Counted from the stretch's first letter, positions 54,779-64,000 are shown. The stretch: DNA of 64,000 nt from Vicingaceae bacterium (GCA_029210015.1 JARGOE010000001.1:5804-69803), one strand, 5' to 3'. Notes: a model not told the origin generated them from the sequence alone. Numbers and translations: made by a program.

Positions 54779-54796
54779 TTAGTTATACTAGAATAT

Positions 54797-54829
54797 AAAA
54801 AAACCGCAAATAAGATTTGCGGTTTTTTT
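54797..54829. terminator. Bidirectional rho-independent terminator between convergent genes
   Basis: CCGCAAA-TAAGA-TTTGCGG hairpin flanked by AAAAAAA and TTTTTTT. The T-run abuts the stop of the minus-strand gene. Confidence 0.85.
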
Positions 54830-56816
54830 ATATTCTAATTCCAACTAGGCAGACATCATCAATCTGTTCTAGCTCTCCTTTCCATTCTGAAAATTCTTTA
54901 TATAGAAGTTCTTTTTGTTCTAATAAGGGTAATGAATTTATAGAAAGTAGTTTTTCTTTTAATGGTTTGTATTTATACTTTTTGCCTTTTTCTCCTCCAA
55001 ATTGATCTGGGAAACCATCAGTCAAAAGGTAGATAGTATCTCCGTTTTGTAAATTAACAGTATGGTTTGTAAAAGGCATTTTATTCATGTATTTGCCAAT
55101 AGGTTGTTTATCTCCTTTTGTTTCAATTATTTCATTGTTTCTAATAATCCATAGTGGATTGTTAGCTCCTGCATACTGTAACTCTAAGTTATTTAAAAGA
55201 CATAGAGCTATATCCATCCCATCTTTAATGTTGGCTTCACTTTTTTCAAAAGTTTCAATAACAATATCTCTTGTTTTATTTAAAATCTCAGCAGGTTCAA
55301 CTAATTGAAACTCCCTTACAGATCTATTTAAAGCATTATTACAAACTACACTTACCATTGCTCCAGGAACTCCATGCCCTGTGCAATCTGCTACAGCGAA
55401 CAAAATTCCATTCTGATTTTTTTCCATCCAATAAAAATCTCCAGCAACAATATCTTTGGGTAAATACAAAACAAAATTTTCAGGTAAAGTTTTTTTAATT
55501 AAATTATTAGTTGGAAGAATAGCAGATTGAATACGTTTAGCATATTGAATACTATCAGTTATATCCCTATTTTTCATTTCAATTTGTTTCTTTTGTACTT
55601 CTAAAGTTTCATTTACTTTTTTCTTAGTAATATTTCCTTTTACAGAAATTACAACAATAACAATTAGAAGAATAAGACCTGTTGAGCCTCCAACAATAAT
55701 CATTTTTTTTTGGGTAGCTTGATATTTCGCTTGTTCTTGTTGCTTTAATATCTCGGCTTCTTTTTCCTTAGTTTCATAAAGAGCATTCATCTCAGCAACA
55801 GAGTTAGCATTTTCTTTGTTGAAAATTTCATCTTTTAGCTGATAAGCCATTTTTAAACTGTGGTTTGCTAAGGCTAAATTGTTTTTTTGCTCATATATTT
55901 TTGCTGTAGTTTCATAAATTTCAATCATTTCGGGTTTTGCATCTAAATCGGTATATATTTTTAATCCTTGACTAAGAAATGAAATAGCTTCACTATGTTT
56001 GTTTTGCTCAGTTAACAAACTACCTAAGCAGCTATACATATTTGCTTGCTGCCACTTATCATTTATTTTTTCAGCTTGTTGAAGAGACTTAAAGTATGAA
56101 GTATATGCTTCGTCATATTCTTTGAGTACAGCATGGACTTCACCAACATTTCCATTAATTAAGGACATACCTCCTAAATCTTTTAATTCGATATATATGT
56201 CTAAAGCTTTTGAATAATAGGTTAAAGCTGTATCGTTATTTCCCATGTCTGAAAAAGAATTTCCCAAATTGTTATAGCATGTAGCTATGTCCATCTTTAA
56301 ATTATGATTTAGGTAATAGTTAAGAGCTTTTTCAATGATATTTATAGATTCTTTATAGTTACCCAAATAATAATGAATTATACCAATATTATTGTAGCAA
56401 GTACTCATGCTATTAGAGTCATTAAGGGCTTCAAAAATTGAAAGTAGCTCGTAGTTTTGCTGTTGAGAAATTGCATATCTTCCCATAAAATCATTTGCAT
56501 AACTTTTATGCATTAATGCAGTTATTCTTCCAGTCTCGTAATTTATTTGTTCTGCTAAACTATAAGATTTAGTGGCATAATTTAAAGCTTTAGGGTAATT
56601 ACTATCTAAGTAGATACTTGCAATATCGTTCAGTACATCAATTTTAGTTGAATCATCAGGAAGAATTCTTTCTAGTTGCAATAAACTATCTAAGGTTTTG
56701 TCATCAGCTTTAATGAAAGTTGTACATAAGGAAAAAGTCAAAAAGAATATAAGATGAAAAAATATTTTTGCTGACTTCATAGCTGAAAGGTAGTGATTTG
56801 AAATCAGACAGCCCAA
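54828..56816 (-). CDS. Transmembrane sensor phosphatase: extracytoplasmic TPR array + TM helix + cytoplasmic PP2C/SpoIIE domain
   Basis: N-terminal signal/TM (likely start 'MKSAKIFFHLIFFLTFSL'). ~7 TPR units ('YNNIGIIHYYLGNYKESI','YNNLGNSFSDMGNNDTAL'...). Coiled coil. TM 'MIIVGGSTGLILLIVIVVISV'. PP2C motifs 'AGDFYW','ADCTGHGVPGA','TDGFPDQFGG','IDDVCLVGIRI'. Confidence 0.85.
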   Translation of the reverse strand: MGCLISNHYLSAMKSAKIFFHLIFFLTFSLCTTFIKADDKTLDSLLQLERILPDDSTKIDVLNDIASIYLDSNYPKALNYATKSYSLAEQINYETGRITALMHKSYANDFMGRYAISQQQNYELLSIFEALNDSNSMSTCYNNIGIIHYYLGNYKESINIIEKALNYYLNHNLKMDIATCYNNLGNSFSDMGNNDTALTYYSKALDIYIELKDLGGMSLINGNVGEVHAVLKEYDEAYTSYFKSLQQAEKINDKWQQANMYSCLGSLLTEQNKHSEAISFLSQGLKIYTDLDAKPEMIEIYETTAKIYEQKNNLALANHSLKMAYQLKDEIFNKENANSVAEMNALYETKEKEAEILKQQEQAKYQATQKKMIIVGGSTGLILLIVIVVISVKGNITKKKVNETLEVQKKQIEMKNRDITDSIQYAKRIQSAILPTNNLIKKTLPENFVLYLPKDIVAGDFYWMEKNQNGILFAVADCTGHGVPGAMVSVVCNNALNRSVREFQLVEPAEILNKTRDIVIETFEKSEANIKDGMDIALCLLNNLELQYAGANNPLWIIRNNEIIETKGDKQPIGKYMNKMPFTNHTVNLQNGDTIYLLTDGFPDQFGGEKGKKYKYKPLKEKLLSINSLPLLEQKELLYKEFSEWKGELEQIDDVCLVGIRI

Positions 56817-56818
56817 TA

Positions 56819-57454
56819 TTAATAGATGTTTCCTAACTTAATTTCGATAGTTTTTTGTTCTGTATCACCAAATTGTTTGGTTGTTTCTATTAAATAAATA
56901 TCAACTCTTATTGTTTTTGTTTTATGCTTTCTAATAACTGAGGCTTCCATAATTCCTTTGTAATTATTACTCGAATCTTTATCTAAAGGAATCGAAAATA
57001 TGATATTGTTAGTTAAGAAATTAACAGTTTTGTTACGTTGTTTTATTAGTGAAATAAGTCTAGAAAGTTTAATACTTGATTCTTTTTGGTCAATTATTGA
57101 AGAATCTGTAATTGTTATAGTATCACTAATAAAAAGTTCTTTCATTAATTCTTCGGAATGTTTAACTAATCCTTTGTCCATTTTGGGATTAGACACAATT
57201 TTCAAATAATCTAAAAAATCTTGAAATTTTTGTTGTGCTCTCAGTTCAAAAGCCGCTTGTTGTTCTATGCTTAAACTTTTGGGTAACTTATTAATATTTA
57301 GTTCTTCAGTAAATTCGGCATTATTCCCCGGTATTGATTTTGATTCTTCTGCTGGAGCTACAGCATCTTCATATCTACTTTCTCCAGCACAAGAGAATAA
57401 AACTAATAGCAAGTAAAAACTAATTATATGTAATACCTGTTTAAACATTTTCAT
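56819..57454 (-). CDS. Lipoprotein of unknown function, co-transcribed with the TPR-PP2C gene
   Basis: Lipobox 'VLFSC' followed by 'AGESRYEDAVAP'. 2-nt gap to the downstream gene and a 14-nt overlap with the upstream gene. Confidence 0.55.
   Translation of the reverse strand: MKMFKQVLHIISFYLLLVLFSCAGESRYEDAVAPAEESKSIPGNNAEFTEELNINKLPKSLSIEQQAAFELRAQQKFQDFLDYLKIVSNPKMDKGLVKHSEELMKELFISDTITITDSSIIDQKESSIKLSRLISLIKQRNKTVNFLTNNIIFSIPLDKDSSNNYKGIMEASVIRKHKTKTIRVDIYLIETTKQFGDTEQKTIEIKLGNIY
57353..57397 (-). repeat. Copy A of a 45-bp inverted repeat (encodes FSCAGESRYEDAVAP)
   Basis: Its reverse complement ttctcttgtgctggagaaagtagatatgaagatgctgtagctcca matches 58858-58902 at 40 of 45 positions. Confidence 0.85.
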
Positions 57455-58370
57455 CTTGTTTTTGTTTAAATCGCATTATAGAGATTTTATCTCCAGAGTA
57501 AATAGTTTCTATTATTTCAATACTTTTTAAGCTTTTTGTTGGAGTGGTTAATTTGTCTATAAATTCCTTTTTGTTAAATAACTCCATTCCTGTTTTTTCG
57601 TCTTCATATACCTGATATATTCTAGCATCATCAGTTAGCATTAAACTTAGTTGTTTTCTTCTTTTTCTCCAGTTAGTTACTTTCGATTTAGAAAATAAAT
57701 GAATCATTAAAGCGTAATCGTTTGTTTTTAATTGAATTTGTTCTTCATTAATGCTTTTGTTATGAACTATACGAGTTATGGTATCGGGTTTATAGTAGGG
57801 TGAGCGAACAACAAATTGTATTTGTTTATCTTTTGTAACTAACGAAAAACAGCCATTACTATCACACTGAGTTACCATTGGTGATTCATTTTGCTTTATA
57901 ACTACCACCCATATAGGACTATTTTTAATAGGAGCTTTTAAGTTAGCATCTACAAAACAAAATTTATAGGTCTTGTTTTGAGGTATAAATTGGTAACCAA
58001 TAAAAACAATTGAAAGAACTAATAGAATAATAATTAATATTAATGGATTTCTTTTTTTAACCTTTATACTAGGTTCTTCTTCAATTTGAAATTTACTTTT
58101 TAGGTCATTCCAATTTTGATATCCTGCATACTCACATAAAATATTTAGCATATCAATTCTTGGAAGCTTTTTTGTTTCTGTTTTAATATGGGTATAAAAC
58201 CATTTTTCAGAAATTCTACCATTTACTTTATCTAGTAAATCATCTTGTAGATATATAATCTCTTGTCGTTTCCACTTTTCAATGTCTAAATCAACAGAAA
58301 AATTAAGTTGTAGTGTTTTTGCAACTTCTTTTTTCAGGATTTTAAAATATTTCAAATCTTCTTTAGACAA
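57441..58370 (-). CDS. Membrane-tethered protein: cytoplasmic HTH-like N-domain + TM + extracytoplasmic domain
   Basis: N-terminal 'ISEKWFYTHIK....LPRIDMLNILCEYAGYQNWNDL' resembles the HTH-like N-domains common in Bacteroidota signalling proteins. TM 'LILIIILLVLSIVFIGYQFI'. ~180 aa lie outside the membrane. TTG start. Confidence 0.55.
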   Translation of the reverse strand: MSKEDLKYFKILKKEVAKTLQLNFSVDLDIEKWKRQEIIYLQDDLLDKVNGRISEKWFYTHIKTETKKLPRIDMLNILCEYAGYQNWNDLKSKFQIEEEPSIKVKKRNPLILIIILLVLSIVFIGYQFIPQNKTYKFCFVDANLKAPIKNSPIWVVVIKQNESPMVTQCDSNGCFSLVTKDKQIQFVVRSPYYKPDTITRIVHNKSINEEQIQLKTNDYALMIHLFSKSKVTNWRKRRKQLSLMLTDDARIYQVYEDEKTGMELFNKKEFIDKLTTPTKSLKSIEIIETIYSGDKISIMRFKQKQDENV

Positions 58371-58394: not shown

Positions 58395-58411
58395 TTTTAC
58401 AATTTGTAAAA
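58395..58411. promoter_or_regulatory. Perfect 17-bp palindrome TTTTACAA-T-TTGTAAAA in a divergent promoter region
   Basis: Read directly from the sequence. It lies 25 nt upstream of the TTG start at 58370. Two further TTTACA(A/G) direct copies lie at 58415-58421 and 58426-58432. Confidence 0.5.
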
Positions 58412-58464
58412 TAATTTACAAAGGGTTTACAGGTATTCTTCAAAGCTATGGTAAAAATGGCTTG

Positions 58465-58472
58465 TATGTTTG
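58465..58472 (+). promoter_or_regulatory. Candidate -7 promoter box (TATGTTTG)
   Basis: Exact TAnnTTTG, 29 nt upstream of the ATG at 58502. It lies inside the longer track ORF, which supports the shorter start. Confidence 0.4.
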
Positions 58473-58501
58473 AGTTATTGTTTAACCCAAAATTTAAAGT
58501 T

Positions 58502-58741
58502 ATGAAAAATTTAATGCAAAAATTAGTTAAGGCAACTCTTTGTTTAGGTGTTGTAAGTGTATCATTAATTGCTTGTAGTGAAGATGTTCAAGAAGACACA
58601 AACATTATCACATTAGATCAATTAAACGATGAATTGAATAAAATCGATTCAACAGTAAATGATACAAATGTAGTGGTAGAAGATTCTTTAGAATTTGAGC
58701 CAGTAGATGTAGAAGAAGTTGTGGAAAAGGAAGAGGAATAA
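58502..58741 (+). CDS. Small acidic lipoprotein
   Basis: The internal ATG gives 'MKNLMQKLVKATLCLGVVSVSLIAC', a signal peptide plus lipobox, followed by 'SEDVQED'. Glu/Asp/Val-rich tail. Confidence 0.5.
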   Translation: MKNLMQKLVKATLCLGVVSVSLIACSEDVQEDTNIITLDQLNDELNKIDSTVNDTNVVVEDSLEFEPVDVEEVVEKEEE

Positions 58742-58747
58742 CATCTA

Positions 58748-58777
58748 AAAAAGCGAGCGGTAAAATGCTCGCTTTTA
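58748..58777 (+). terminator. Rho-independent terminator (moderate)
   Basis: AGCGAGC-GGTAAAAT-GCTCGCT hairpin followed by TTTT. It overlaps the ATG at 58765 used by the track ORF, which argues for the 58813 start. Confidence 0.5.
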
Positions 58778-58812
58778 TTAATTCATTACCAATAACTCAA
58801 AAAACAATTATC

Positions 58813-59676
58813 ATGAAAAAGAATCTTTTAATAGCAAGTATAATGGCTATAATGCTATTTTCTTGTGCAGGAAAAAGTAGATATGAGGATGCTGCAGCTC
58901 CAATTGTGGCAGGAAATGCCAAAGCTGAAGCATATGATGAAATAACTGAAGGTCTTGAAGAGGAAGAATATAGTTCGAACTCAGAAGATATAAAGCAAGA
59001 TAATCCAAAAACGGTTTTCACTTATAATAGAAAGTTAATTAAAGAAGGAAGTATAACTTTTGAAACTTCGGATGTTAAAGCCACAAAAAATATAATTGAT
59101 AAGGCTACAAAGCAGTTTAATGGATACTTGTCCGAAGATAATGAATATGATTATGGGTATAGAATTCAGCATAATGTTACAATTCGTATACCATCAGAAA
59201 ATTTTGATAATCTATTAGCTTCAATCTCAAAATCTGTAGAAGAAATGGATGACCAAAACATTTCTGTAAGAGATGTAACTGAAGAGTATGTAGATGTTGA
59301 AGCACGATTAAAATCAAAAAAGAAAGTGGAAGAACGTTATTTAGGATTATTAAGTAAAGCTTATAGCGTTGGTGATATTTTACAAGTAGAGCATGAATTA
59401 GCAAGAATAAGAGAAGATATTGAAAGAGTAGAAGGTAGGTTAAGATATTTAAAAAATCAAGTTAGTTTAAGTATTTTAAGAATTACTTATTACGAAACAG
59501 TTGAAGTAGAAAATAGTTTTGGATTTGGAAAAAAAGTTGGTGATGGGTTTGAAAATGGTTTTAAAGGATTACTATGGTTCTTTATCGGATTAGTAAATAT
59601 TTGGCCATTCCTATTTTTTATAGCTATAGGAGTATGGTTTTTAGTGAGATGGATAAAGAGAAGAAGTAAAAAGTAA
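58813..59676 (+). CDS. DUF4349-family lipoprotein with C-terminal membrane helices
   Basis: Start 'MKKNLLIASIMAIMLFSC' (lipobox). DUF4349-type core 'VTIRIPSENFDNLL..VRDVTEEYVDVEARLKSKKKVEERYLGLL..ELARIREDIERVEGRLRYLKNQV'. C-terminal TMs 'LLWFFIGLVNIWPFLFFIAIGVWFLV'. Confidence 0.75.
   Translation: MKKNLLIASIMAIMLFSCAGKSRYEDAAAPIVAGNAKAEAYDEITEGLEEEEYSSNSEDIKQDNPKTVFTYNRKLIKEGSITFETSDVKATKNIIDKATKQFNGYLSEDNEYDYGYRIQHNVTIRIPSENFDNLLASISKSVEEMDDQNISVRDVTEEYVDVEARLKSKKKVEERYLGLLSKAYSVGDILQVEHELARIREDIERVEGRLRYLKNQVSLSILRITYYETVEVENSFGFGKKVGDGFENGFKGLLWFFIGLVNIWPFLFFIAIGVWFLVRWIKRRSKK
58858..58902 (+). repeat. Copy B of the 45-bp inverted repeat (encodes FSCAGKSRYEDAAAP)
   Basis: ttttcttgtgcaggaaaaagtagatatgaggatgctgcagctcca. 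40 of 45 positions are identical to the reverse complement of 57353-57397. Confidence 0.85.
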
Positions 59677-59690
59677 ATTAATAAATTTAA

Positions 59691-59722
59691 AAAAGCCCTG
59701 CTATCAAATAGCGGGGCTTTTA
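59691..59722 (+). terminator. Rho-independent terminator
   Basis: AGCCCTGC ... GCGGGGCT hairpin (one G.U pair) followed by TTTT, with an A-run upstream. Confidence 0.6.
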
Positions 59723-59760: not shown

Positions 59761-59785
59761 AAAAGAAAAGTAGCCATTTGGCTAC
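59761..59785 (-). terminator. Possible minus-strand terminator for the small ORF
   Basis: GTAGCCA/TGGCTAC inverted repeat overlapping the stop codon, followed on the minus strand by TTTTCTTTT. The loop is very tight, so only part of the stem can form. Confidence 0.4.
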
Positions 59786-60057
59786 TTTAATATTCTGTAA
59801 ATTTTCTGTTCCAAGTTAATGGGTAAATGAAAGGTTGTAATTTCTAGTTTATGATCTTTATAATTAACTCTTACTAGTCCTTGGCAGCGCTCAATATCTC
59901 TTTTTACTGGATTTAATGCTCGTTCAATACTTGTTTTAATACTTGTTACAAATGATTTTTGGATGCTATCAGTAATTTGAAAATATGAAACATCATTGTA
60001 TCTTAAATCTAAATTGTCCATAACTAATAATTTTAGTGTTTGAACATAGGTTTGCAA
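59782..60057 (-). CDS. Small hypothetical protein (probably the ~79-aa form starting 'MDNLDLRYN')
   Basis: An ORF only, with no family recognised. It is bracketed by terminator-like hairpins on both sides. Confidence 0.35.
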   Translation of the reverse strand: MQTYVQTLKLLVMDNLDLRYNDVSYFQITDSIQKSFVTSIKTSIERALNPVKRDIERCQGLVRVNYKDHKLEITTFHLPINLEQKIYRILK

Positions 60058-60141: not shown

Positions 60142-61293
60142 TTATTGCATTTTAAAACTAACTGGTAAAGTCATTTTAACTTTTACATTTTTACCCTTAT
60201 CCTTTCCTGGGGTCCATTTAGGCATTGCTTTAACAACTCTAAGAGCTTCTTTATCTAGAGGTTCTGCTGCACTTTTTGCAACTGCTGCATCAGTAACATT
60301 ACCTTTTTCATCAACTATAAAGGCTATGTATGCAACACCCGACAATCCAGTTTCTTTAGGGTAATTTATGTTTTCGCTCATATACTTTATCATGGCGTCC
60401 ATACCACCTTTAAATTCAGGCATAACTTCAACATTGTCTTTAGCATCTACTTGGTTAGTTGAAACTTCTGTTGTATTAGCAACAGCTTTTTGATTAATAC
60501 TCACAGTAGCAAAAATTATAGCTACAGGAATTACTAAAGCATATTTTAACATGCTTAAACTTTTTGTTTTTGTTGTTTTCATCATCATGATTCTCCTTTT
60601 TATTAATGGTTTATAATTAAAATTGTTTGCTAACATACTGCAATTCACACCTAGCAGTTGAGCAATAAGGACTGATGAATAATTTTCTTTACTATTTTTT
60701 GAAGCGATATTATCCGCAATAAATTCATGGTTACATTTTACTGAGTATGATGCTAACCAAACAAAAGGGTTCCACCACAGAATAATTTTTAAAAGTTCAT
60801 AAGTTAAAACATCTATAGAATGTAATTGAGTTGAATGAACTCTTTCATGGGTAATAATTTCTTTTTTACTTTCTTCATCTAATTCTTTTGGAATGTGGAT
60901 AAAGTTGAAGAATGAGAAGGGAGCAATATTAATTTCTTTGCCTCTTTTTATATGATTAATTCGAATAATTATAGTTGTTAGGTTATATAGAAGCTTTATT
61001 GCAAAAAAAGCTGAAATAGCAATATATCCTGTACTAATAACATCCATATAGCTATAGCTTGTTGATGCATTTAACGAACTGCTTAATTTTATAGTCGGTA
61101 AAGAGATAGTATAATAGTTTGTAATTGTTTCACTCCAATTTATTAATGGGATAATAAAGGAAAAAGGAATTATAAGTAATAAGTAAAAACGGTTCACTTG
61201 AAAAAAAGTGCTGTTTTTAAAAAATAAGAAATAGATTAAATACAATAAGGTAAATAGTCCCCCAATTTTTCCAATATATATAAGTTGTTCCAT
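60142..61293 (-). CDS. BlaR1-like M56 peptidase sensor fused to a TonB C-terminal domain
   Basis: Four N-terminal TM segments. Zinc motif 'THERVHSTQLHS'. C-terminal TonB_C-like 'VEVMPEFKGGMDAMIKYMSENINYP..GVAYIAFIVDEKGNVTDA'. Confidence 0.8.
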   Translation of the reverse strand: MEQLIYIGKIGGLFTLLYLIYFLFFKNSTFFQVNRFYLLLIIPFSFIIPLINWSETITNYYTISLPTIKLSSSLNASTSYSYMDVISTGYIAISAFFAIKLLYNLTTIIIRINHIKRGKEINIAPFSFFNFIHIPKELDEESKKEIITHERVHSTQLHSIDVLTYELLKIILWWNPFVWLASYSVKCNHEFIADNIASKNSKENYSSVLIAQLLGVNCSMLANNFNYKPLIKRRIMMMKTTKTKSLSMLKYALVIPVAIIFATVSINQKAVANTTEVSTNQVDAKDNVEVMPEFKGGMDAMIKYMSENINYPKETGLSGVAYIAFIVDEKGNVTDAAVAKSAAEPLDKEALRVVKAMPKWTPGKDKGKNVKVKMTLPVSFKMQ

Positions 61294-61294
61294 A

Positions 61295-61648
61295 TTATTT
61301 TGAATTGTTTTTTAATAATTCGTCAATCTCGTTAATGTCAATATTTTTTTCTTTCACAAAAAAAGACATCATAGCTTCTGCCGATCCACCAAAAAAATTG
61401 CTTACTAGATTATTAGTTTTTAATTTCATGTAATCATCTTTACTAATAATAGGGTGGTATTGATGTGTTTTTCCATATGCAGTATAACTAACAAATTCTT
61501 TTTTTTCTAATATCCTTACAATTGTAGAAACAGTATTGTATGCTGGAGTTGGCTCAGGAAGTTCAGAAACTATTTCTTTTACAAAACACTTTTGTTTTTC
61601 CCATATTACTAGCATTATCTGCTCCTCTGCTTTTGTTAATTCTTTCAT
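61295..61648 (-). CDS. BlaI/MecI/CopY-family winged-helix repressor
   Basis: 'LTKAEEQIMLVIWEK..FVKEIVSELPEPTPAYNTVSTIVRILEKKEFV', 117 aa. 1-nt gap to the BlaR1-like gene. Confidence 0.85.
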   Translation of the reverse strand: MKELTKAEEQIMLVIWEKQKCFVKEIVSELPEPTPAYNTVSTIVRILEKKEFVSYTAYGKTHQYHPIISKDDYMKLKTNNLVSNFFGGSAEAMMSFFVKEKNIDINEIDELLKNNSK

Positions 61649-62312: not shown

Positions 62313-62699
62313 TTATTTTAAAGATTTTATAACAGCGTATGGTCCCATTCGGCTTTGTACATGAGCTTGGTTTTCATCACAATGGTCCCACATCCCGTCT
62401 TTTATCTCAACTTCAACACTAATCCCATTTCCAATATACTGTTCTAATTCTTCGTGAGTTAAATTACTCTCACATAGTTTAATAAAGTAGTCTTGTACAG
62501 AACATCTTAAATAGAGCTCCTTAAAAACAGCAATTTTTCCTCCTTTATTTACAAATTCTTTTTCGATTAATTGGCAATTATAAATATTGGGTGTTGCGTT
62601 TTCTTTAGAAATAGATTGAGATTTTTCAACAGTTACACTTTTGGTATTATTACATCCAAAAATGAATATTAAAAAAAATATGTAGGTCAGTTGTTTCAT
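62313..62699 (-). CDS. Cys-containing lipoprotein co-transcribed with the second TPR-PP2C gene
   Basis: Lipobox 'IFIFGC'. ATGA overlap (62696-62699) with the upstream gene. Confidence 0.5.
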   Translation of the reverse strand: MKQLTYIFFLIFIFGCNNTKSVTVEKSQSISKENATPNIYNCQLIEKEFVNKGGKIAVFKELYLRCSVQDYFIKLCESNLTHEELEQYIGNGISVEVEIKDGMWDHCDENQAHVQSRMGPYAVIKSLK

Positions 62700-64000
62700 A
62701 TTTTAATTCCTAATACACAAACATCGTCAATTTGTTCTAGGTCACCTCTCCAGTTTTCGAAAGTATCATTTAATACTTCTTTTTGTTGGTCTAAAGGAAG
62801 ATGAGATATTTTTAATAATAAGTTTTTAAATTGTTTATACATAAATTTCTTCCCTTTAGGTCCGCCAAACTGGTCTGCATAACCATCAGAAAAAAGATAG
62901 ATACAGTCATCCTTTTTTAAACTAATAACATGATTTGTGAATTTTGATTCTTTATGGTGCTTACCAATATGTTGTTTGTCTCCTTTAATTTCTATTAATT
63001 CATTTTCTCTTATGATGTATAAAGGGTTGTTAGCGCCAGAAAATTGAAGTTGATTTGTAGAGAAATTTATGGCGCAAAGTGCTATATCCATTCCATCCTT
63101 AACATTATTGCTCTCAGTTTCAAATCTGTTTTTCACAAAATCTCTAGTTGTATCTAACAAAATACCAGGGGTAATTGAAGCTTTTTGTTCTAATCCATGA
63201 TTAAGGGCGTTAGAACAAACTACAGAAACCATAGCTCCAGGAACTCCATGGCCTGTGCAATCTGCTGCGGCAAAAAATATTTCGTTATTTACTTTTTCCA
63301 TCCAGTAAAAATCTCCTGCTACAATATCTTTTGGTTTATACAATACAAATGAATTAGGTAACTGTTTTTTAAAAATCTCATTACTAGGTAAGATAGCTGC
63401 TTGAATTCTTTTAGCATAGGTAATACTATCTGTTATTTCATTATTCTTTTCTTCTAAAAGTATTCTTTGGTGATTGATTTTAGCGCTAAGCTTTCGAGCT
63501 CTAATAAAAATAAATATGACGAACATTATAATAACTAAACATAGTATTACCAAAAATATCAATTGAGAGATTTTAGATTTAGCATTTAAAGTATTTAATT
63601 GTTCATTTTTAATTTCTAATTCTTGTTGGGCAATTATTTTTTGATTTTCACTAAAGGCTAATTCTGTTTCAATTTCATTTATTTTATTAATTCTCTCGAT
63701 ATTGTATATTTCTGTTTCAATACTATCATTTATTACTTTTGCTAGATATGCACTCTTATAATCACCTTGAATTTCATATAGTTTTATAAGTAATAGGTAA
63801 GATTCATTTGTTTCATGCATTAAGTTATTGCTAGTTGCAATAGCAATACTTTTATATAAGTGGTTTTCAGCATTTTTATAATCTTTTTGTGCAAAGTAAC
63901 TTTCGGCCATTTCCATATAAATGGTCGTTTTACTATCTATCATGTTTTCATTTTCAGCAACTGATAGAGCTAGTTTGAATTCTGATAATGCTTTTCTATA
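62696..64000 (-). CDS. Second TPR + TM + PP2C/SpoIIE sensor phosphatase (N-terminus outside the window)
   Basis: The reading frame stays open from 63943 to nt 64000 ('YRKALSEFKLALSVAENEN-MIDSK...', TPR-like). TM 'LIFLVILCLVIIMFVIFIFI'. The PP2C motifs are near-identical to the 54828-56816 paralogue ('AGDFYWMEK','ADCTGHGVPGAMVSVVC','IDDVCVLGIKI'). Confidence 0.85.
   Translation of the reverse strand, partial: YRKALSEFKLALSVAENENMIDSKTTIYMEMAESYFAQKDYKNAENHLYKSIAIATSNNLMHETNESYLLLIKLYEIQGDYKSAYLAKVINDSIETEIYNIERINKINEIETELAFSENQKIIAQQELEIKNEQLNTLNAKSKISQLIFLVILCLVIIMFVIFIFIRARKLSAKINHQRILLEEKNNEITDSITYAKRIQAAILPSNEIFKKQLPNSFVLYKPKDIVAGDFYWMEKVNNEIFFAAADCTGHGVPGAMVSVVCSNALNHGLEQKASITPGILLDTTRDFVKNRFETESNNVKDGMDIALCAINFSTNQLQFSGANNPLYIIRENELIEIKGDKQHIGKHHKESKFTNHVISLKKDDCIYLFSDGYADQFGGPKGKKFMYKQFKNLLLKISHLPLDQQKEVLNDTFENWRGDLEQIDDVCVLGIKI

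Follow-up and report, generated by a model that had tools for sequence, protein, structure and literature searches.

A conserved membrane protein-lipoprotein gene pair and its operator suggest a new type of membrane-anchored gene regulator in Bacteroidota

In the 64,000-nucleotide stretch of Vicingaceae bacterium DNA analysed here (GCA_029210015.1, JARGOE010000001.1:5804-69803; hereafter the window), three minus-strand genes, g1, g2 and g3, fill positions 54828-58370. An earlier note, made from the sequence alone, had read them as one envelope-sensing module composed of a membrane-tethered protein with a helix-turn-helix (HTH)-like domain, a lipoprotein, and a phosphatase with periplasmic tetratricopeptide repeats (TPRs) and a cytoplasmic PP2C domain. 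Comparison with relatives delimits another unit: what is conserved across Bacteroidota is the g1-g2 pair with a predicted operator in front of it, not the three genes. This arrangement points to what may be a new kind of membrane-anchored regulator. The reading that we favour, with a little less than even confidence, is that g1 would be a membrane-tethered autoregulator and g2 its periplasmic co-sensor, their targets being their own operon and the divergently transcribed envelope-lipoprotein genes.

The three open reading frames (ORFs) were borne out by ORF calling, as was the 14-nt overlap said to join g1 and g2. All on the minus strand, g1 (57441-58370, TTG start) encodes a 309-residue protein, modelled as a single-pass inner-membrane protein and proposed here as the membrane-tethered regulator; g2 (56819-57454) encodes a 211-residue lipoprotein, the proposed periplasmic partner or co-sensor of g1; and g3 (54828-56780), which comes last in the operon, is accessory and lineage-specific. 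For the comparison, the best 80 of 331 loci encoding g1 relatives in a one-genome-per-species scan were retained and 92 metagenomic g1 loci were added, each locus being viewed with approximately 10 kb on either side. The g1-g2 loci span Flavobacteriales, Bacteroidales, Cytophagales, Chitinophagales and Sphingobacteriales, and a g2 homologue lies directly 3' of g1 in all but one of the loci with room for it, with an overlap of mostly 4 nt.

A palindromic site had been remarked on beside the start of the unit. It is present, lies far from chance, and is a putative phylum-wide operator that travels with g1. In the window it is an array of four 7-nt half-sites at 58396-58432, which in the orientation of g1 reads CTGTAAA-ccct-TTGTAAA-ttat-TTTACAA-a-TTGTAAA (CTGTAAA at 58432-58426, TTGTAAA at 58421-58415, TTTACAA at 58410-58404 and TTGTAAA at 58402-58396), and its perfect core dyad, TTGTAAA-N4-TTTACAA (58404-58421), is the single exact match of that pattern within the window. 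The family-wide array is TTGTAAA-N4-TTGTAAA-N4-TTTACAA, often with another TTTACAA, with half-sites spaced by 11 nt (direct-direct) and by 10 or 21 nt (direct-inverted), and the dyad starts 46-79 nt, mostly 50-57 nt, before the g1 start codon. Among 11 Vicingaceae intergenic regions (g1 identity to the window protein 64-85%) the block hardly changes and the flanking bases vary; outside Vicingaceae, 67 of 70 loci have a TTGTAAA no more than 150 nt upstream of g1 (6% of background windows have one), and the exact hexamer dyad was present in 47/82 loci. In 1.14 Mb of locus DNA, 54 18-mer dyads with no more than one mismatch are near g1 and four are elsewhere, three of these four still being 270-850 nt upstream of g1. 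The operator accompanies g1 whichever gene is divergent from it (VWA/YfbK_C, DUF4349 or other).

The reciprocal test, in which metagenome contigs were scanned with a 29-nt pattern alone, returned at least 120 stretches, 118 of them with room for a neighbouring gene, and among the matches listed a g1 homologue adjoins 89 of these 118 (85 directly downstream and four in the other orientation). Among the other matches, five sit 108 nt upstream of the gene for a 78-residue small lipoprotein, a paralogue of the small lipoprotein encoded divergently from g1, with g1-g2 present on three of the five contigs; two matches precede a conserved 175-residue secreted protein and two another secreted protein, and the remaining non-g1 matches are chance occurrences in extremely AT-rich or repetitive DNA. 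The 78-residue lipoprotein and the 175-residue secreted protein are thus candidates for extra regulon members, judging from the sequences that precede their genes. In locus L158, for example, the operator copy lies at 1079-1107 and the small lipoprotein gene at 1215-1451, and L085, L102 and L135 are similar, with g1-g2 on the contigs of L085, L135 and L158; in L111 and L142 the copy lies 78-89 nt upstream of the gene for the 175-residue protein. Because of its conservation, geometry and specificity, together with the reciprocal scan, we regard the array as a dedicated operator, used mainly at the g1 promoter and at a few envelope-protein targets.

Other explanations of the site itself were considered. 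The counts inside and outside g1 upstream regions and the reciprocal scan ruled out both a site for a global regulator and a chance palindrome; as for the array being a sigma-A promoter in its own right, no consistent TAnnTTTG or TTTG pattern was found. Rfam gave no family at gathering score for the intergenic regions. Immediately upstream of the array there is a further conserved element (58434-58445, minus strand), TTTGAAGAATAC in the window and tTtGAAAaAC as a consensus across 69 aligned loci, which overlaps TAGCTTTG, a match to the Bacteroidetes -7 box pattern; it may be a promoter element or else a fifth half-site of degenerate sequence.

From hydropathy and flanking charge, g1 has one hydrophobic segment (residues 104-132) with a basic stretch, KVKKRN, on its N-terminal side, which places the N-terminus inside, a single pass through the membrane and the C-terminal domain in the periplasm; with the overlapping g2 gene downstream, this is the topology of a ToxR-like regulator. 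The AlphaFold2 model (mean predicted local distance difference test score, pLDDT, of 82) has five cytoplasmic helices in residues 3-93, a transmembrane (TM) helix at 109-127 and, in the periplasmic part, a beta-sandwich (133-213) followed by an alpha/beta domain (219-303), and the N-domain modelled separately (residues 1-95) reached a pLDDT of 90 and a predicted template modelling score (pTM) of 0.81. Hydropathy and model agree with the earlier description of one TM helix and an outside domain of about 180 residues; the HTH-like label that it gave to the cytoplasmic part did not hold, as discussed below. The periplasmic part has two conserved Cys residues, weak CarboxypepD_reg-like matches of the beta-sandwich in a few family members, and a weak Foldseek link of the alpha/beta domain to SnoaL/NTF2-like domains; none of the 924 g1 homologues has a Pfam domain.

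The N-domain is the best-conserved portion of g1 and contains the invariant block GRISEKWFYTHIK...PRID. In 105 representatives with 28-49% identity to the window protein, Q42, S54, Y59, P70, R71, D73 and L75 are invariant and E55, K56, W57, F58 and K63 nearly so; predicted helix 3, SEKWFY(T)H(I)K, is nearly invariant, as are several basic residues. Throughout 280 representative clusters the N-domain always belongs to the same protein of approximately 310 residues or to its fragments, and no remote relatives in other architectures were found among them. In the L158 lineage, helix 3 reads SEKTFY, not SEKWFY, and the operator at g1 has a 6-nt spacer.

The product of g2 is a predicted lipoprotein of an undescribed family, in agreement with the periplasmic or surface lipoprotein proposed before: its signal peptide ends in the lipobox LVLFSC, whose Cys column is invariant in 30 homologues, and the family core RAxQKxxDFxDY...KxFG...LG is conserved. 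Neither Pfam nor the PDB gave a match for g2, and no relation was found between g2 and the C-terminal domain of g1. An iterative g2 hidden Markov model drew in DUF4349 proteins through the common lipoprotein N-terminus, which we treated as contamination. The window has a 47-nt inverted repeat with arms at 57353-57399 and 58856-58902 that are 89% complementary. The arms code for the lipobox and the first residues of the mature protein in g2 (LFSCAGESRYEDAVAP) and in the DUF4349 lipoprotein described below (LFSCAGKSRYEDAAAP), and between them lie g1, the operator and orf97. Several Vicingaceae relatives, L004 not among them, have a CAG[ED]..Y motif common to both proteins. The repeat could reflect gene conversion, a common lipoprotein sorting signal or an invertible segment.

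On the other side of the array, and divergent from g1, lies orf97, which encodes a small, very acidic lipoprotein (58502-58741, plus strand, within an ORF at 58448-58741; likely start MKNLMQK at 58502, MKNLMQKLVK...LIAC). It is conserved in Vicingaceae loci with 53-67% identity, always between the operator and a DUF4349 gene, which in the window follows at 58765-59676 (plus strand) and encodes a lipoprotein with a C-terminal TM helix (Pfam DUF4349, 8e-56). Both orf97 and the DUF4349 gene are probable members of the regulon; in a distant lineage, a paralogue of the small lipoprotein has an operator copy of its own 108 nt upstream. A DUF4349 or VWA/YfbK_C gene recurs divergent from g1 in other lineages, and outside Vicingaceae the commonest divergent gene encodes a vWF_A/VWA/YfbK_C protein of 530 residues, sometimes followed by DUF4349 (L001 6238-7836, L002 6186-7790 and approximately 27 other loci). 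Such recurrence suggests that a functional link of the g1-g2 pair with VWA/YfbK_C and DUF4349 envelope proteins may be conserved.

The topology proposed for the g3 product was as described, according to Pfam and hydropathy. A signal-like segment (residues 16-37) is followed by periplasmic TPRs over about 300 residues (approximately 40-340; TPR_12, 4e-29), a TM helix at approximately 373-393, the sequence KGNITKKK and a SpoIIE domain (PF07228, 2.8e-19). The last of these, at residues 469-661, scores 70.3 bits against a gathering cut-off of 25, covers profile positions 3-190 of 192, and is accompanied by the acidic motifs GDFY at 459, DCTGHG at 477, TDG at 599 and DD at 653, which we take to be Mn2+ ligands. 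The PP2C half (403-662) also aligns with the SiaA equivalog model NF038263 (1.7e-58, 198.7 bits, far below the 700-bit cut-off), and the sensor half (23-421) with the FimS model NF053520 (8e-29, 100 bits, far below the 600-bit cut-off). We regard g3 as a predicted phosphatase of the ordinary SpoIIE/RsbU PP2C kind, its TPR sensor being FimS-like, and not as a SiaA equivalog. As the earlier note had stated for the window, neither a STAS protein nor an RsbW-type kinase or sigma factor came up in the 30 ORFs scanned, out of 51 with 100 residues or more, a set that takes in nearly every one shorter than 360 residues; the Pfam-annotated flanks of the relatives contain no STAS or anti-sigma-type kinase genes, and no diguanylate cyclase gene adjoins g3. 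The substrate of g3 is presumably a partner-switching protein of the STAS type, with its gene in another part of the genome.

The ends of the unit were examined as well. A gap of 2 nt had been given between g2 and g3, which is obtained with the most upstream TTG (56816; 662 residues) and becomes 38 nt with the ATG at 56780 (650 residues). Since the database gene call on the window's own contig starts g3 at this ATG (650 residues, 100% identity and coverage), the longer spacer is the likelier. No hairpin was found in the 38-nt spacer, and because it is short and free of a terminator, g3 is probably co-transcribed with g1-g2 in this bacterium, which would place it under the same operator. The bidirectional terminator reported at the end of the unit was confirmed as a terminator-like hairpin at 54789-54837, with a perfect stem of 23-25 bp between runs of A and of T on either strand, folding energies of -27.8 and -29.8 kcal/mol on the two strands (z = -10 and -11.5) and none of 200 shuffles folding as well; a consensus terminator scan did not pick it up. 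It ends both the g1-g2-g3 unit and a convergent gene for a Cbp1-family lipoprotein.

It is in the distribution of g3 that the integrated three-gene module fails. In that proposal g1, g2 and g3 form one machine, in which the lipoprotein and the TPRs sense jointly and the PP2C domain acts with or on a membrane-bound DNA-binding protein; the tight packing of the genes in the window without an internal terminator and with one terminal hairpin, the retention of the order g1-g2-g3 in several relatives (g1 identity 66-88%) and the fact that all three products face the periplasm are in keeping with it. However, a PP2C gene lies 3' of g2 in only 5/105 g1 loci with room, all five close relatives (L007, L009, L010, L011 and L012 among the genome loci; g1 identity 66-69%; Vicingaceae or close Flavobacteriales). 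Loss of synteny in relatives had been named beforehand as evidence against the module, and synteny was indeed kept for g1-g2 and lost for g3. The closest reference genome, L004 (g1 identity 85%), has a terminator hairpin directly after g2 and no g3, although its flanks are those of the window (DUF4349, small lipoprotein, g1, g2, Cbp1-like, DUF2807, thioesterase and a 1088-residue BNR protein), and L005, L006, L013 and L014 likewise lack g3 at this position. Metagenomic relatives with a g1 identity of 81-88% carry g3 on the same contig, the gene order being verified in L204. Copy number after g2 varies among relatives from zero to one or two, with tandem paralogues in L010 (11548-15752) and L011 (9618-13828), and g3 belongs to a very large family (at least 7,999 homologues, annotated "TPR protein / RsbU") with several paralogues per Vicingaceae genome. 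No features of g1 or g2 are specific to the genomes that carry g3. From this presence and absence among relatives, g3 is a lineage-restricted gene of variable copy number inserted between g2 and the terminator, and, being absent from approximately 95% of g1-g2 loci with room, it does not belong to the conserved mechanism; we hold the integrated machine to be very improbable.

Nearby paralogues of g3 also occur in the window. A second TPR-TM-SpoIIE gene (62696-63943, minus strand; 46% identical to g3) overlaps by 4 nt the gene for a 128-residue lipoprotein with no family match (62313-62699, minus strand), so that 62313-63943 is another phosphatase-lipoprotein pairing, with a different lipoprotein, which the earlier note had not mentioned. 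The second phosphatase holds the same position in L006, L010, L011, L013 and L204, and in L204 the 128-residue gene follows. Like L010 and L011, L204 (20655-21980) carries tandem g3 paralogues after g2, and in these relatives there are further TPR-SpoIIE genes within approximately 10 kb; in L204, three g3 paralogues fall within 22 kb. The region of the g1-g2 locus appears to be an expansion hot spot for the TPR-SpoIIE family.

According to the autoregulator reading, the five-helix N-domain of g1 would bind the TTGTAAA/TTTACAA half-sites, phased at approximately 11 bp, as a dimer or a dimer of dimers, while its beta-sandwich and alpha/beta domains, with the co-translated g2, would perceive a cue in the envelope. 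This would set the transcription of g1-g2 and of the divergent envelope lipoproteins (orf97 and DUF4349 in the window, VWA/YfbK_C in other lineages), and in the Vicingaceae lineage g3, between g2 and the terminator, would come under the same control. The analysis itself shows the order of the genes, their topology and domain content, the synteny of g1-g2, how conserved and specific the operator is, and where g3 is present or absent. The DNA binding of g1, the interaction of g1 with g2, the signal, the choice between activation and repression and the co-transcription of g3 are all parts of the scheme that we infer. A membrane-bound DNA-binding output at the palindromic site had already been proposed, and it gains indirect support here, given that the operator travels with g1 and that the N-domain is the best-conserved part of the protein; g1 is also the sole conserved cytoplasm-facing protein at the locus. 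The ToxR-like fold attributed to that output did not survive, as neither a winged-helix nor an XRE domain emerged from sequence, profile or fold searches.

These searches weigh against DNA binding by g1. Pfam and NCBIfam gave no HTH or other DNA-binding family for the protein, and Pfam gave no HTH family (Cro/C1 types such as HTH_3 and HTH_25 included) for 23 N-domains and 105 diverse members, nor a match to the PF00486 winged helix in any of these. A PDB profile search had no match, and Foldseek, run with the full model and the N-domain model against PDB and BFVD, found no DNA-binding fold; with the N-domain model, despite its pLDDT of 90, nothing fell below E = 1, the top PDB match being the XRE repressor DdrO at noise level (E = 3.9, TM-score 0.38). 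With XRE-type HTH membrane proteins (RodZ-like, BcrR-like) in view, the N-domain was compared by hhalign with a small set of six classical XRE domains, which returned a probability of 0.6%. The PDB holds thousands of HTH structures, and a canonical HTH would normally be detected; with every search negative or at noise level, an HTH identity for the N-domain is not supported. Judged by eye alone, the helix pattern of g1 recalls XRE domains and its stretch K..KLPRIDML..L..YAGY..W.D looks like their C-terminal half, which is no more than a lead. Furthermore, no covariation links helix 3 to the operator, because both are nearly invariant, the array could lie in the 5' untranslated region, and an unlinked soluble regulator may fit as well, our view having spanned approximately 10 kb on each side of the locus.

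That last possibility is the more serious of the two rivals that we retain, and we consider it unlikely. In it, g1-g2 would be a target, a non-regulatory envelope complex whose N-domain binds a cytoplasmic protein or the membrane, and the operator would be bound by an unlinked soluble factor, e.g., a Crp/Fnr- or Rex-like dimer. The dyad does resemble the TGTGA-N6-TCACA sites of CRP and the TTGTGAA-N4-TTCACAA sites of Rex, the lack of any detected DNA-binding fold in g1 is then no difficulty, and the occurrence of the operator before other envelope-protein genes is what a small regulon would give. However, approximately 75% of the exact metagenome motif matches listed sit at g1, which is typical of the promoter of an autoregulated factor; near-perfect dyads away from the immediate vicinity of g1 are as few as the four counted above; the loci and motif matches examined, those away from g1 included, have no recurring transcription factor gene next to the motif; and the extreme conservation of the cytoplasmic domain, with its invariant polar and basic residues, would be left unexplained. 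The second rival, to which we give a clearly smaller chance, makes g1 an anti-sigma factor or anti-activator, whose N-domain would hold a sigma or transcription factor and free it upon a periplasmic signal perceived by the g1 domains and g2, the freed factor then binding the operator. Its topology is alike, with a short helical cytoplasmic N-domain, one TM helix, a periplasmic domain and an accessory lipoprotein, and DUF4349 and VWA/YfbK proteins often accompany pairs of extracytoplasmic function (ECF) sigma and anti-sigma factors. Nevertheless, no sigma or transcription factor gene is found in the conserved neighbourhood, Pfam detected no zf-HC2 or RskA domain in g1, the 23 N-domains or the 105 members, and an operator with dyad symmetry and four phased half-sites is unlike a -35/-10 ECF promoter. 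It is because the conservation of g1 and its pairing with the operator stand against the missing match to a DNA-binding fold that our confidence in the autoregulator stays just short of even and that these two rivals are kept.

Farther along the window, beyond the DUF4349 gene, there are two strong terminator-like hairpins (59691-59721 and 59767-59788), the second of which is terminator-like on both strands and adjoins a conserved 91-residue ORF with no family match (59782-60057). A BlaI/MecI-type repressor gene (61295-61648, minus strand) is followed by one for a BlaR1-like Peptidase_M56 membrane protein (60142-61293) with a TonB C-terminal domain at its end; the Peptidase_M56-TonB_C fusion is also found in L204, and a BlaR-like gene in L004.

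The g1 family, the g2 family and the operator appear to be undescribed. No Pfam or NCBIfam model covers g1 or g2 and no relative of either has a solved structure, and our literature search on the g1-g2 module, the operator motif and Bacteroidetes TPR-SpoIIE proteins found nothing relevant. Hundreds of Bacteroidota species, marine Flavobacteriales as well as Bacteroidales and Cytophagales, have nonetheless kept the pair and its operator, and the conjunction of a protein family with an almost invariant cis-element provides a testable hypothesis, namely that a 95-residue domain binds TTGTAAA-N4-TTTACAA. If true, a phylum in which ECF/anti-sigma and hybrid two-component signalling predominate would gain a DNA-binding module of a new kind, along with a new circuit for envelope stress or envelope sensing. 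Taken further, and more tentatively still, g1 could be the founder of a family of tethered transcription factors, so far restricted to Bacteroidota, with a new DNA-binding module of approximately 95 residues and a four-half-site operator; with g2 it would govern a small envelope regulon (small lipoproteins, DUF4349, VWA/YfbK), and in Vicingaceae it would have captured a TPR-PP2C phosphatase, coupling the circuit to Ser/Thr phospho-signalling. The lineage-specific placement of g3 also calls for a correction in how the abundant TPR-SpoIIE phosphatases are annotated: since the gene beside g1-g2 is lineage-specific, no conserved functional coupling can be read from its position.

Among known systems, the closest in layout are the membrane-bound one-component regulators of Vibrio, ToxR/ToxS, TcpP/TcpH and VtrA/VtrC. 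Like g1, these are single-pass, N-in proteins with a cytoplasmic N-domain and a periplasmic C-domain, and like g1-g2 they have the gene for a periplasmic partner directly downstream and co-transcribed; by analogy, the action that we propose for g1 at phased repeats in the promoters of envelope proteins would be a further likeness. ToxR-type regulators, however, carry the OmpR/PhoB winged helix (PF00486), to which the N-domain of g1 has no detectable relation, so that g1 falls outside the ToxR family; the family of the lipoprotein partner g2 is moreover undescribed, the carriers are Bacteroidota, and DNA binding by g1 is putative. ECF anti-sigma factors with accessory lipoproteins share with g1-g2 the helical cytoplasmic N-domain, the TM helix, the periplasmic domain and the accessory protein, but g1 has no anti-sigma domain and its conserved neighbourhood no sigma gene. 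As for g3, transmembrane SpoIIE/RsbU-type PP2C phosphatases are represented by Chlamydia RsbU, Pseudomonas aeruginosa SiaA and Bacillus subtilis SpoIIE, and g3 has in common with this class a periplasmic sensor, a TM helix and a cytoplasmic PF07228 domain with all the acidic metal-binding motifs. It departs from the RsbU/SiaA type in that its sensor is a TPR array and not a Cache or HAMP module, and from SiaA itself in that it scores well under the equivalog cut-off and that adjacent genes for a STAS substrate, a kinase and a diguanylate cyclase were not found. The FimS-type sensor kinases of Bacteroidetes, finally, have a signal segment, a periplasmic TPR region and a TM helix with which those of g3 align, and differ in their output, which is a histidine kinase where that of g3 is a predicted PP2C phosphatase.

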